Positions 9,726 through 60,586 of a stretch of 64,000 bases of DNA are shown here, piece after piece. The notes beneath the pieces were generated by a model that was not told the DNA's origin, did not search any database, and saw nothing but the letters and a program-made list of their open reading frames with translations. Position 1 is the first letter of the stretch. Each line of letters starts with the position of its first letter. The stretch covers positions 96,001 through 160,000 of the forward strand of contig CAVPLU010000004.1 of the NCBI GenBank assembly GCA_963706285.1, given 5' to 3'. The translations under genes and the position numbers were made by a program. Source of the stretch: Candidatus Bathyarchaeota archaeon. GTDB lineage: Archaea > Thermoproteota > Bathyarchaeia > 40CM-2-53-6.

Positions 9726-11215
9726 CTATCCCTTTGTTACTCCGATTGGTGTGAGACGGCATACTTTGGTTGCGATGCCTACTTGGTGGCTGACTTCCAC
9801 TACGCGGTCAACATCTTTGTAGGCTCCTGGCGCTTCCTCAGTCACTGTTCCCATTTCGGCTGCTCGAATCATGATGCCCTTGTCTGCGAGTCCCTTCTTG
9901 ACTTCTTGTGGTCCCCATCGTCTCTTTGCGGCTGCTCTGCTCATCATGCGGCCTGCGCCGTGTGCGGTGGAGCCGAAGCTTAGTTCCATACTCTTCGCGG
10001 TTCCGACGAGTAGCCATGAGCTGGTTCCCATGCTGCCGGGGATGAGGACCGGTTGTCCGATCTCTCTGTACTCTGCTGGGATGTCGGAATGTCCTGGAGG
10101 AAACGCTCGCGTTGCGCCTTTACGGTGGACTATCACCTTTCGTTGATGTCCTTCTTGGTCAACCACGTGGTTCTCGATTTTCGCGACATTGTGGCATACA
10201 TCGTAGATCAGGTGCATGTCAAGCTGATCTGCGGTTTTTCCAAATGTCTTCTCGAAAGCTTCTCTCGTCCAGTGCGTGATCATTTGCCTGTTTACCCAAG
10301 CGAAATTGCATGCTGCACGCCATCGCTGGGAGGTAATCCTCTCCCTCTGGACTCTTCGAGGGAGCGCATGCGAGCTGTCGATCTGGCAAGTTGATGTGAT
10401 ACTTGCTCACGGCTCGTTCCATGACTCGAAGATAGTCACTGCATACTTGATGCCCGTATCCTCTGCTACCAGTGTGAACTAGGACTAGTATCTGTCCAGG
10501 GCGTTCTATTCCTAGATACTTCGCGACGCGTTCATCGAAGATCTTGTCCACTCTCTCTATCTCGAGAAAGTGGTTTCCGCTCCCGAGACTGCCGAGTTGG
10601 CGATGTCCCCTGCTCTTTGCGGTTGAGGAGACCTTGGAGGGGTCGGCCGATTCCATGCATCCGTTTTCTTCGCAATGGTTCTTGTCTTCAGACCATCCGT
10701 AGCCGTGATCAACTGCCCACTCGACTCCATCCGCCACCACCTTGTCAATCTCCCCCTGCGTAACACGGATTTTGCCGAGGCTCCCAAGACCTGATGGAAC
10801 ATTGTCAAACAATGCATCAAGCAGCTTCGAGAGGGCTGGTTTCATATCGTTCTCGTTGAGGTTCGTGCGAATGAGTCTGACGCCGCAATTTATGTCGTAG
10901 CCGACTCCCCCGGGGCTGATGACTCCTTCATCGTAGTCCATTGCCGCGACGCCGCCGATTGGAAAGCCATAGCCTTCGTGGCCGTCCGGCATCGTTATTG
11001 ACCATTTATGGATGCCGGGTAGAGTGGCGACGTTTGCACATTGTTCAAGCGTTGCATCTAGATCTCATTTTCTCGATGAGTGTCTTGTCAGCGTAGATTC
11101 TTCCGGCAACTTTCATGCCGGGTCTGAACGATTGGGGAATCTCCCACATGTACTCGTCGAGTTGCTTTAACTGAACACGTTCTGATGATCGCCCATAGGC
11201 GCCTTCGTCTGGCAA
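9726..11215 (-). CDS. rtcB: tRNA-splicing ligase RtcB (frameshifts ~11060 and ~10315)
   Basis: MPDGHEGYGFPIGGV, GVGYDINCGVR, LGSGNHFLE, HRKGATRAF, HGAGR, EEAPGAYKDV; N-terminus (YMWEIP..GMKVAGRIYA) lies in another frame. Confidence 0.93.
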
Positions 11216-21191: not shown

Positions 21192-21292
21192 GGGCCGGTA
21201 GTCCAGCTCGGTTAAGTGACGCTGCCCTCACACCCACACGTGAACGGTGAGAACGGCAGAGGTCGAGGGTTCAAATCCCTCCCGGCCCACCA
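21192..21292 (+). tRNA. tRNA-Val(CAC) with canonical 37/38 intron (21233-21253, 21 nt) and encoded CCA
   Basis: Acceptor GGGCCGG/CCGGCCC, anticodon stem CTGCC/GGCAG, T arm GAGGG-TTCAAAT-CCCTC; BHB central helix CTCA/TGAG with CA|C and AA|C bulges. Confidence 0.95.
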
Positions 21293-58910: not shown

Positions 58911-59271
58911 TCAGTAGTCACCGAATCTAAGATAGAATTTGACACCGCTATCAAATATCGCTTTTGCCCACAATTCCACACATTGCACCGTTCTTTGCTA
59001 TTTCGACCAGAATCGTAAGGCGTTAGACACGGAGAATATGCAAGACTGAACGAAGCCAGCGGCATTGGAAGCGACCACTTCTCGTAATCTCTCGCCTTCG
59101 ACTGGGAAGGTCTGGTATGATTAGCAGAATGCCAGTGCAGAGTGCGTTCCTTCAAGATTTGACACTACTGCAAATTCGAAATCAGACTTGCTGGCGAGAA
59201 CGTTTCTAACCCCGCTGGCACGCACTGATGTACGATGATGTTTGATGCTTTGATGGGATGTGGATGCGTCA

Positions 59272-59380
59272 TGGTGGACCGGGCGGGATTTGAACCCGCG
59301 ACCTTCCGCACATTGGAACTGGAGTTTGCCAAGCGGACGATCTTCGGCCCTCGAGGCATACCAGACTGATCTACCGGCCC
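59272..59380 (-). tRNA. tRNA-Ala(GGC) with two introns (D-loop ~21/22, 59343-59357; 37/38, 59311-59326)
   Basis: Acceptor GGGCCGG/CCGGTCC with the G3:U70 Ala identity pair; D stem GATC/GATC; anticodon stem TCCGC/GCGGA; T arm GCGGG-TTCAAAT-CCCGC; encoded CCA. Confidence 0.92.
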
Positions 59381-59572
59381 ACGATAATCGCCTAACATCA
59401 ACGATGTACGACCAATCATCATTTGAAGGGTCGTCCGTCTATGCGTCAGCGACGTGTGAGTTGGGTCTGGCCTCGTTAAATGGATTTTGGAAGCCCGAGA
59501 TTATCAGGGAGATTGAGTGATTGGGAAAGTCTTAATTGAAAGCCGAAAGGCCTACAGTCCCATCCCAGCTGT

Positions 59573-59736
59573 GCCGAGGTAGAACCTTCGGGTTCCTTGA
59601 CAGCTCAGCCTGGGAGAGCACCCGATGCCTGTGAGCAGGTGAGGCTGAAGACCGGGCTGACGGCCAGACGGCTGGCCCAATCGAGTGTTCAAAACCGTCG
59701 GGCCAACCGACGGGGAAAATCACTCCCTCGGCACCA
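59573..59736 (+). tRNA. tRNA-Phe(GAA) with four non-canonical introns (8/9, 30/31, 46/47, 59/60)
   Basis: Removing 59581-59601, 59625-59643, 59660-59680 and 59694-59719 leaves a fully paired 77-nt cloverleaf ending in ACCA; each insert forms a BHB/BHL motif. Confidence 0.92.
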
Positions 59737-59816
59737 ACTACCCTACTTCCTCGAAGTTGACTCCTAGTCTGCAAAAGATAGATCAATGCCTGCAATAGCA
59801 CTGGAAGCAATCTAGG

Positions 59817-60586
59817 GTGCAAAGAGTGCGCGTCGGTTTCGTACAGATGAATCCACGACTACTTCGAGTAGAGGAGAACGTTGACAAAGCGCTCCGCTTT
59901 CTCGAGAGAAACAAAGCGGACCTAATGGTTCTCCCAGAACTCTTCAACACTGGATACAACTTCTCCAACCGTCGAGAGATCGAGAAGGTGGCCGAAAGGA
60001 TCCCTACCGGCTACACGATGTCAGAAGCTTCTGGACCTGTCGCGTAGTCGAAAGATGACGATCGTTGCAGGCATAGCGGAAAGAAGAGGAACAAGTCTAT
60101 ACAATTCTGCAATTGTAGCCCGTAACGGACGGGCGTCAACCTACCGTAAGGTTCACCTCTTCTTCAGGGAGAAGAAATTCTTCAAACCAGGAAACGAGTT
60201 CAAAGTCTTCGGCGATCTCGGAGTCATGATCTGTTTCGACTGGTTCTTTCCCGAGTCCGCTCGGACTCTGATGCTTAAAGGTGCAAAGATAATTGCTCAC
60301 CCATCGAATCTTGTACTGCCTTTCTGTCCCCATGCGATGAAGACGAGATGTATTGAGAACCGCGTCTTCGCAGTGACCGCGGACAGGATCGGCCGTGAAC
60401 AGCGAACTGAAGTACATAGGACGCTCGGAGATAGTTGACACGAAAGGGCGCATCTTGTACTGTGCTTCATCAAATCGAGAAGAGGTGAGGGTTCGTGAGA
60501 TCGATCTTCGAGAAGCTGCCAACAAGAGGATGACCTCCGTGAACGATATCATTCAGGACAGGAGGCCGGAAGTCTACGTGCGCTAG
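59817..60586 (+). CDS. Carbon-nitrogen hydrolase (nitrilase family; two frameshifts)
   Basis: Catalytic triad motifs LPELFNTGY, YRKVHLF, ICFDWFFPE. Confidence 0.88.

Follow-up and report, generated by a model that had tools for sequence, protein, structure and literature searches.

In reviews up to 2021 and in the tRNAscan-SE 2.0 paper, three introns per transfer RNA (tRNA) gene is given as the archaeal maximum (PMC8450103, PMC4390854). A 2024 paper reported 228 tRNA introns in three Asgard genomes (PMC11291895), and an Asgard preprint dated 15 Oct 2026 gives a mean of 2.2 introns per gene with up to five in one tRNA gene, quoting 1.54 introns per gene for the richest Thermoproteales genome. 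Among the tRNA splicing endonucleases (EndA), the two-subunit enzyme is presented in one study as one of only two types that cut non-canonical introns (PMC5829648). No publication on Bathyarchaeia tRNA introns came up in a literature search, the supplementary tables of PMC11291895 and of the Asgard preprint lying outside it. The gene described here comes from a Bathyarchaeia genome bin (labelled G000; 89% complete, 7.5% contamination) and lies at positions 59573 to 59736 of the 64,000-nucleotide stretch of contig that was analysed, hereafter the window. It is read as a functional tRNA-Phe(GAA) gene and, as far as the assembly shows, the only one of this archaeon, a reading to which we assign a probability of roughly 90%.

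The gene spans 164 nucleotides (nt) and consists of five exons separated by four introns of 21, 19, 21, and 26 nt at tRNA positions 8/9, 30/31, 46/47, and 59/60, with intron sequence making up 87 of the 164 nt (53%). Its parts are as follows.

59573..59580, + strand: exon 1, the acceptor 5' strand and U8 (tRNA positions 1-8)
59581..59601, + strand: intron 1, 21 nt at 8/9, whose motif is of the bulge-helix-bulge (BHB) type
59602..59624, + strand: exon 2, position 9, the D arm, position 26, and anticodon-stem positions 27-30
59625..59643, + strand: intron 2, 19 nt at 30/31, with a BHB motif
59644..59659, + strand: exon 3, position 31, the anticodon loop with GAA, the 3' anticodon stem, and variable-loop positions 44-46
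59660..59680, + strand: intron 3, 21 nt at 46/47 in the variable loop, with a relaxed motif
59681..59693, + strand: exon 4, variable-loop positions 47-48, the T-stem 5' strand, and T-loop positions 54-59
59694..59719, + strand: intron 4, 26 nt at 59/60 in the T loop, with a BHB motif
59720..59736, + strand: exon 5, position 60, the T-stem 3' strand, the acceptor 3' strand, A73, and the encoded CCA (59734-59736)

Joining of the exons yields a 77-nt product that ARAGORN calls as tRNA-Phe(GAA). Its cloverleaf has stems of 7, 4, 5, and 5 base pairs (bp), each of the 21 pairs being Watson-Crick; the discriminator is A, and CCA is encoded in the gene. The anticodon GAA is carried by a loop of 7 nt that has U33 and, at position 37, a purine, and the conserved U8, A14, G18-G19, and TTCAAAT T loop are in place, both in the ARAGORN drawing and by a full score (32/32) from the solver described below. 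A73 and G20, which we take to be phenylalanine identity elements, are both present in the sequence. The exons are colinear and contiguous within the 164 nt, the gene being neither split nor permuted, and exon 1 runs straight into exon 2 in the orthologues without the 8/9 intron. The original prediction had proposed this stretch with all four insert coordinates, a 77-nt product with four perfect stems, the lack of an intron at the canonical site 37/38, and an intron share of 53%; on re-reading of the sequence the coordinates proved exact, and the remaining points agree with the anatomy given above.

All boundary shifts that leave the product identical were scored for BHB geometry, and for each of the four introns the best geometry was obtained at the boundaries first proposed, which agrees with the four central helices of that proposal and with its placing of the predicted cuts after the second base of each bulge. 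The motifs carry 3-nt bulges on both strands in the required 5'-helix-bulge-3' order and differ in their helices.

Intron 1 motif: central helix CGAG/CTTG, 4/4 pairs (one G-U); inner helix 5 bp; outer helix 2 bp
Intron 2 motif: central helix CACC/GGTG, 4/4 pairs; inner helix 3 bp; outer helix 2 bp
Intron 3 motif: central helix GGGC/GCCC, 4/4 pairs; inner helix 5 bp; outer helix 0 bp
Intron 4 motif: central helix TTCA/GGAA, 3/4 pairs (A-G mismatch); inner helix 7 bp; outer helix 5 bp, which is the T stem

The strict hBHBh' form is defined by at least two Watson-Crick pairs in each flanking helix (PMC7714728). Introns 1, 2, and 4 have both flanking helices of this form, intron 4 with the mismatch in its central helix, and intron 3 falls short of it as a relaxed HBh' motif whose exon-side helix is absent. 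With each motif folded alone, the BHB of intron 3 was the minimum-energy structure, motifs 1 and 4 lay 1.7 and 2.9 kcal/mol above the minimum, and motif 2 lay 4.6 kcal/mol above it because of an alternative hairpin.

A cloverleaf assembled by skipping segments could be a chance resemblance that owes its perfection to the free choice of deletions. This was weighed with a solver that uses no tRNA-Phe homology but anchors on an acceptor stem with CCA, applies a lax BHB filter to the skipped segments, and awards up to 32 points for the cloverleaf and its conserved bases. At the locus, its top solution was the identical set of four introns at 32/32. Of 3631 prefiltered sites over the whole genome, 220 survived the T-arm stage and led to 275 site/acceptor combinations, seven of which timed out; in the reversed genome the numbers were 2555 sites, 121 survivors, and 155 combinations, five of them timed out. 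The solver is indeed able to build cloverleaf-like products from reversed sequence, using five or six free deletions in 200-340 nt: 53 decoy loci had some solution, and the best score, 31, was reached at three of them, each with six 'introns' and at least 199 nt. However, no decoy in the reversed genome reached 32, the best decoy of up to 170 nt scored 27, and the same exons are contiguous in 22 intron-free orthologues (see below), which leaves coincidence a practically negligible explanation.

The gene escapes the tools by which tRNA genes are usually found. ARAGORN reported no tRNA gene in the window and, with introns allowed, made 26 calls in the whole genome, none of them at 59573-59736. 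Rfam at the gathering threshold detected in the window only a tRNA at 21192-21289, and the Rfam tRNA model produced 31 whole-genome matches at E<=10, none at the tRNA-Phe locus. The expectation that standard annotation would miss the locus thus holds for ARAGORN and Rfam.

A BLAST search with the 164-nt gene matched 32 of 61 related genomes, including the source genome, and a class-wide search matched 130 of 301 genomes, from which 60 loci were taken up. Because BLAST missed two whole genera of the same family, a two-motif pattern search of the family was also made, matching 45 of 59 genomes and none on backward reading. Spliced alignment combined with the solver resolved 29/30, 49/60, and 18/21 loci from these searches, giving 96 tRNA-Phe(GAA) genes. 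Locus L030 was excluded, its first alignment being spurious (nine 'introns' of up to 645 nt) and its anchor motif absent. Eleven of the 60 class-level loci stayed unsolved: L071, L080, L085, L089, and L094 are cut by a contig end or lack the gene, and L046, L053, L064, L073, L092, and L095, which stand outside the 96, showed by eye 3, 3 (uncertain), 2, 2, 1, and 1 introns. At the three unsolved family-level loci, L107 and L124 are cut by contig ends and in L112 the anchor caught a leader copy. Matches to tRNA-Phe within a few hundred bases of contig ends were seen at L060, L079, L080, L082, L085, L089, L090, L094, and L096, and tRNA genes may often mark assembly breaks in metagenome bins of Bathyarchaeia. 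Because sampling was non-random and the relatives are not independent, the following counts describe the sample rather than frequencies.

All orders of the class, 96 genes solved: no intron in 22, one in 10, two in 17, three in 30, four in 12, five in 5
The order of the source genome, 60 genes solved: no intron in 0, one in 0, two in 14, three in 29, four in 12, five in 5
Other orders of the class, 36 genes solved: no intron in 22, one in 10, two in 3, three in 1, four in 0, five in 0

Six main intron sites are used in these genes, with occupancies among 78 genes of 17 at 8/9, 13 at 18/19, 47 at 30/31, 9 at 37/38, 32 at 46/47, and 28 at 59/60. Site 30/31 is thus the most widespread and extends to other orders. 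One intron at 35/36 and one gene with a product one base shorter were the rarities among the 78, and five introns were found in the Phe genes of G019, G040, G048, G255, and G222. All 22 intron-free genes are contiguous over 74 nt (to the discriminator), which is the length of the spliced product of the source gene, and align well with it; these genes of equal mature length therefore fix the exon boundaries independently of any motif.

Based on the mature-sequence junctions, the best BHB register within ±10 nt fell at the junction for 140 of 142 distinct introns, compared with about 11 expected by chance. Central helices are canonical with few exceptions: all four pairs are so in 16/16 distinct introns at site 8/9 and in 43/43 at site 30/31. 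The inner helices covary, staying paired although both strands have changed. At site 46/47, all 31 distinct introns have canonical pairs at inner-helix positions 1-3, with up to five pair types; for position 2, where five pair types occur, slid controls gave only 12-17/31 canonical. At site 59/60, inner positions 1-2 are canonical in 28/28 distinct introns with three to four pair types; the fourth pair of the central helix is A-U in 15 of these introns, and the other 13 have the A-G of the source gene. Removal of the inserts by self-splicing or by another nuclease, or their retention in the RNA, fits poorly with BHB geometry kept at 140 of 142 junction pairs. In addition, 19-26 nt is much too small a size for a group I or group II ribozyme, and a retained insert would break every cloverleaf arm, so that these alternatives are considered extremely unlikely.

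In the genus of the source genome, the tRNA-Phe genes of the source and of five of its nine relatives all share the four sites (6/6), with intron sequences 83-96% identical overall, and comparison showed near-invariant exons beside introns that have diverged with compensatory changes. The other four relatives (88-95% complete) gave no tRNA-Phe match by BLAST or by pattern search. In the source genome itself the gene has one BLAST match, and 10-mer seeds taken from the mature tRNA form one cluster there; the next one is a tRNA-Tyr(GUA) at a contig end. Three ARAGORN 'Phe(gaa)' calls elsewhere in the genome were rejected, as their BHB-consistent parse gives a Val(GAC) and two copies of a Thr(GGU, U73). 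In answer to the question raised by the original prediction of whether this is the only tRNA-Phe(GAA) gene of the genome, no second copy was found, a result that is provisional because the bin is 89% complete and 7.5% contaminated. A decaying pseudogene filled with junk inserts, with the working tRNA-Phe in the unassembled 11% of the genome, would suit the incompleteness of the bin and the four relatives without a match. Such decay is hard to reconcile with a perfect cloverleaf and an encoded CCA, with exons that stay nearly unchanged while introns diverge in a compensatory manner, or with a promoter-like motif conserved upstream. All 60 solved Phe genes of the same order have at least two introns, moreover, and no relative has an additional intact Phe match; this explanation is regarded as very unlikely.

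The functional reading also finds the expected enzymes encoded in the genome. Matches of PF01974 and PF02778 at two loci revealed two EndA paralogues. EndA alpha (186 amino acids; 88 bits on PF01974) most resembles, and aligns end-to-end with, the catalytic chains 2cv8_A, 3p1z_B, and 2zyz_B (E values of 4e-40 to 4e-31), which come from the enzymes of Sulfolobus tokodaii, Aeropyrum pernix, and Pyrobaculum aerophilum, and it keeps the Tyr/His/Lys of those chains. In the HMMER alignment with 3p1z_B, its IPKPKP stands opposite VEKPRG of A. pernix, where by manual residue count K39 corresponds to K44 and K41 to R46; K44 of A. pernix, in the Crenarchaea-specific loop, is reported to confer a broad substrate range (PMC3241643). 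EndA beta (174 amino acids; 45 bits) has its closest counterparts in M. kandleri and M. jannaschii. It lacks the catalytic Tyr and His, showing His and Arg/Tyr in their places when aligned to 1a79, with the positions set by the residue numbers that we take to be the catalytic ones of that structure. The closest EndA relatives among named records are all titled Bathyarchaeia or Bathyarchaeota. A relaxed-specificity endonuclease, as had been supposed for this genome, is plausible for an EndA alpha with the loop lysine accompanied by a non-catalytic paralogue.

The RNA ligase gene lies in the window in the following form.

9726..10992, - strand: RtcB RNA ligase gene, as overlapping open reading frames 10219-10992 and 9726-10283 with a one-base frameshift, the break near 10283-10325

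The statement that RtcB is encoded in the window stands insofar as PF01139 matches this region, in two pieces of 326 and 261 bits, and needs amendment in that the gene is frameshifted in the assembly. Five same-genus relatives keep a single open frame of 496-527 amino acids, in one case with 99% identity to the C-terminal piece that served as query, and for this reason the frameshift is probably an assembly error. The RtcB open frame of another genome, G004, has 923 amino acids, which might mean an inserted element. Archease (PF01951) is present on another contig.

Upstream of the tRNA-Phe gene stands a further element.

59525..59538, + strand: promoter-like element, a purine-rich stretch and TCTTAATT, with TTAA beginning 41 nt before the mature 5' end

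An A-rich stretch with TCTTAAT/G or a variant (TTTAA, CTTATT) was seen by eye about 35-45 nt upstream in most of 29 orthologues, and a TTAA-type motif lies 41-42 nt upstream in 6/6 same-genus tRNA-Phe genes. This motif may represent an archaeal B recognition element (BRE) and TATA box. Assistance of the leader in folding BHB 1 was considered and is not claimed. With the native leader of 16 nt added, BHB 1 became cheaper in the model in all 17 orthologues with an 8/9 intron, also relative to the mean of five shuffled leaders; at the source gene the effect is weak and depends on how long the leader is (7.9, 6.7, 4.8, and 7.4 kcal/mol at 9, 12, 16, and 20 nt), and it was matched by 13/200 shuffled leaders and by 5/32 leaders of other tRNA genes. 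Separately, 24 of 78 Phe genes carry, 0-5 nt ahead of the mature 5' end, a copy (at least 6/7 bases) of the acceptor 5' strand GCCGAGG; these genes, some with and some without the 8/9 intron, all belong to the order of the source genome (L007-L010, L014, L015, L018, L021, L026, L045, and L048-L050 are among them). The copy was found in none of 32 Phe genes with no or one intron. That it acts as a decoy for the 3' acceptor strand is one, weakly supported, idea.

From the observed anatomy of the sequence, the way it is conserved and covaries among orthologues, and the enzyme genes encoded in the genome, a route through transcription, cleavage, and ligation to an aminoacylated tRNA may be proposed. 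Transcription from the conserved BRE/TATA-like promoter would give a precursor of about 175 nt, in which each insert with its flanking exon bases would fold into a BHB of two 3-nt bulges split by a 4-bp helix. A heterotetrameric (alpha-beta)2 splicing endonuclease would then cut after the second base of each bulge, RtcB, with Archease as its helper, would join the five exons, and end processing would leave a standard 77-nt tRNA with its encoded CCA. The four motifs could be cut in any order, because their footprints (59573-59604, 59617-59646, 59654-59681, and 59683-59725) occupy separate stretches without overlap. Cutting may be driven by the enzyme and perhaps be co-transcriptional, the latter being suggested because the 3' acceptor strand is made last.

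Removal of the introns in a fixed order, from a precursor unable to form all four motifs together, would be the principal alternative course for a real gene. In a partition-function model, enforcing motifs 1 to 4 in the full precursor cost 11.0, 5.4, 4.1, and 3.0 kcal/mol, the high cost of BHB 1 arising because the acceptor stem competes with it, and the cost of motif 3 fell by 2.7 to 1.4 kcal/mol once intron 2 was gone. These values, the minimum-energy fold of the full precursor, which is free of BHB central helices, and the ordered removal documented for multi-intron tRNAs of Cyanidioschyzon merolae (PMC3728597) would all be in keeping with a sequence of steps. The footprints, however, do not overlap, the costs over 15 combinations of retained introns changed little (by at most about 2 kcal/mol for motifs 1, 2, and 4), and nearest-neighbour energies at 37 °C are little guide to an RNA that is enzyme-bound or folding during transcription. 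A fixed order therefore appears unlikely, though it keeps a real share of plausibility, and the ordered splicing raised as a possibility in the original prediction is not needed to account for the gene, with footprints separate and motif costs nearly independent of the other introns.

Several points weigh against a functional gene processed in this way. The minimum-energy fold of the whole precursor (-80.6 kcal/mol) contains no central helix at all, the structure with all four BHBs reaching -45.6 kcal/mol, and forming BHB 1 costs about 11 kcal/mol in the model. Intron 3 has no exon-side helix, the central helix of intron 4 contains an A-G mismatch, and the alternative hairpin of intron 2 is more stable than its motif. 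The register test on the orthologues is not fully independent because BHB criteria helped to choose some of their junctions; the only RtcB gene of the genome is frameshifted as assembled, and the uniqueness of the tRNA is subject to the limits of the bin. Excision of the four introns is a prediction from sequence. A search for RNA sequencing runs containing the locus listed none, and three runs of the same study (share 0.00 each) gave nothing on tRNA-Phe within 59200-59900, a result uninformative about expression, and the short pieces that fell in this interval matched only the ends of the neighbouring tRNA-Ala.

The tRNA-Phe gene is not alone in its genome. The solver works only where CCA is encoded, C61 is present, the 3' end is uninterrupted, and the acceptor stem pairs 7/7, and it failed at least at C4:424463-424581, C4:191214-191342, the Ser(GCU)-like C4:5382-5460, and the window tRNA at 21192-21289; owing to these requirements, failures, and timeouts, the counts for the source genome are a lower-bound sample and not a full catalogue. 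In this census, 33 confident tRNA loci were obtained (30 without duplicate contigs), none intron-free, with 76 introns or 2.5 per gene.

One intron: 6 genes
Two introns: 11 genes
Three introns: 6 genes
Four introns: 5 genes, Phe, Gln(UUG), Gln(CUG), Asn(GUU), and Arg(CCU)
Five introns: 2 candidate genes, Pro(GGG) and Trp(CCA)

The positions of those with four or five introns, besides Phe, are given below; each of the four-intron genes scores 32/32 and is confirmed by ARAGORN after splicing.

G000:C4:264371-264532, + strand: Gln(UUG), four introns
G000:C4:313734-313893, - strand: Asn(GUU), four introns
G000:C12:127304-127465, + strand: Gln(CUG), four introns
G000:C6:70624-70790, + strand: Arg(CCU), four introns
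G000:C3:165487-165727, - strand: Pro(GGG), candidate with five introns
G000:C13:120380-120597, - strand: Trp(CCA), candidate with five introns

The central helices of the two five-intron candidates are all 4/4 except for one at 3/4, and the 65-nt intron of Trp(CCA) at 37/38 shows C/D-box-like motifs by eye only. An all-versus-all comparison of 83 introns from the 33 confident loci gave no sign of intron copying between tRNA genes: similar pairs came only from duplicate contigs and from the two Gln genes, and the four Phe introns match only themselves within the genome. The Thr(GGU) and Met(CAU) genes of C4 occur again on contig C20, their introns nearly the same, and contig C1 carries a second Arg(UCG) gene with the exon plan of that on C6 but only 1/3 introns alike, duplicates that fit the 7.5% contamination or a strain mixture in the bin.

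Two other tRNA genes were noted in the window. A tRNA-Ala(GGC) with G3-U70 and two introns, in the D loop and the anticodon region, lies at 59275-59380 (- strand), 193 nt upstream of the tRNA-Phe gene; it scored 32/32 in the solver and 49 bits in the whole-genome Rfam search, and was absent from the window-level search at the gathering threshold. The tRNA at 21192-21289 (+ strand), where the solver failed, is by hand parse a tRNA-Val(CAC) whose single intron, of 21 nt, occupies the canonical site 37/38 (central helix CTCA/TGAG), and the ARAGORN label Ser(aga) is a mislabel.

The idea in the original prediction that four introns may exceed the described maximum holds only against the three of the reviews up to 2021, the Asgard preprint giving up to five, and any claim to a record is further removed by the two five-intron candidates of this genome and the five-intron Phe genes of relatives. 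The lineage shows a mosaic: tRNA-Phe genes in the order of the source genome have introns at two to five of the six sites, and 32 of the 36 solved genes of other orders have none or one. If this picture is right, the mosaic together with intron-free outgroups of equal mature length would let intron gains and losses be dated site by site, and an order-wide mosaic beside intron-free sister orders would form a natural series for the arrival and loss of protein-spliced introns, a question that the Asgard preprint leaves open. Bathyarchaeia bins would seem to lack tRNA-Phe and many other tRNAs, because such genes are invisible to the common tRNA finders, and estimates of completeness and codon usage would be distorted accordingly. 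The tRNA-Phe gene would also be a convenient test piece for the substrate range of an (alpha-beta)2 endonuclease, since its precursor offers four different substrates in one molecule, including strict BHB motifs, one without an exon-side helix, and one with a mismatched central helix.

Among the described systems, split and tri-split tRNA genes share with this gene the BHB-like joining and the same endonuclease and ligase system, but there separate loci are joined in trans (PMC3218864), whereas the exons here are colinear within 164 nt. The red alga Cyanidioschyzon merolae has BHB introns, up to three of them, that interrupt the D arm, site 37/38, and the T loop; its genes include a tRNA-Phe(GAA) with an ectopic intron, and stepwise processing was shown there by reverse transcription polymerase chain reaction (PMC3728597). 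It differs in being a eukaryote with the introns in nuclear genes, in its maximum of three introns per gene, and in having some permuted genes (PMC3728597). In the Thermoproteales, exemplified by Pyrobaculum calidifontis tRNA-Glu(UUC) and P. islandicum tRNA-Pro(UGG), short BHB introns likewise occupy non-canonical sites of the D arm, the anticodon stem, the variable loop, and the T loop (PMC4390854, PMC8450103). Both they and the present genome have a two-subunit endonuclease with the Crenarchaea-specific loop and tRNA genes that are hard to annotate; for the Thermoproteales the cited papers give at most three introns per gene, whereas this genome, of the separate lineage Bathyarchaeia, has four in Phe, five in candidates elsewhere, and a mean of 2.5 over 30 solved genes. 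The Asgard genomes of the 2026 preprint resemble it in that nearly all tRNA genes are interrupted, many at non-canonical sites and with BHB-compatible boundaries, in their two EndA paralogues, and in the many genes that standard annotation misses; they belong to another phylum, and the preprint text does not mention Bathyarchaeia. Whether one order of Bathyarchaeia had its own large-scale spread of tRNA introns, as a third case beside the Thermoproteales and two Asgard classes and one not yet in print, is evenly balanced in our judgement. In comparison with these systems, the tRNA-Phe gene is not a record and extends the known multi-intron architecture to a further lineage and a further isoacceptor.

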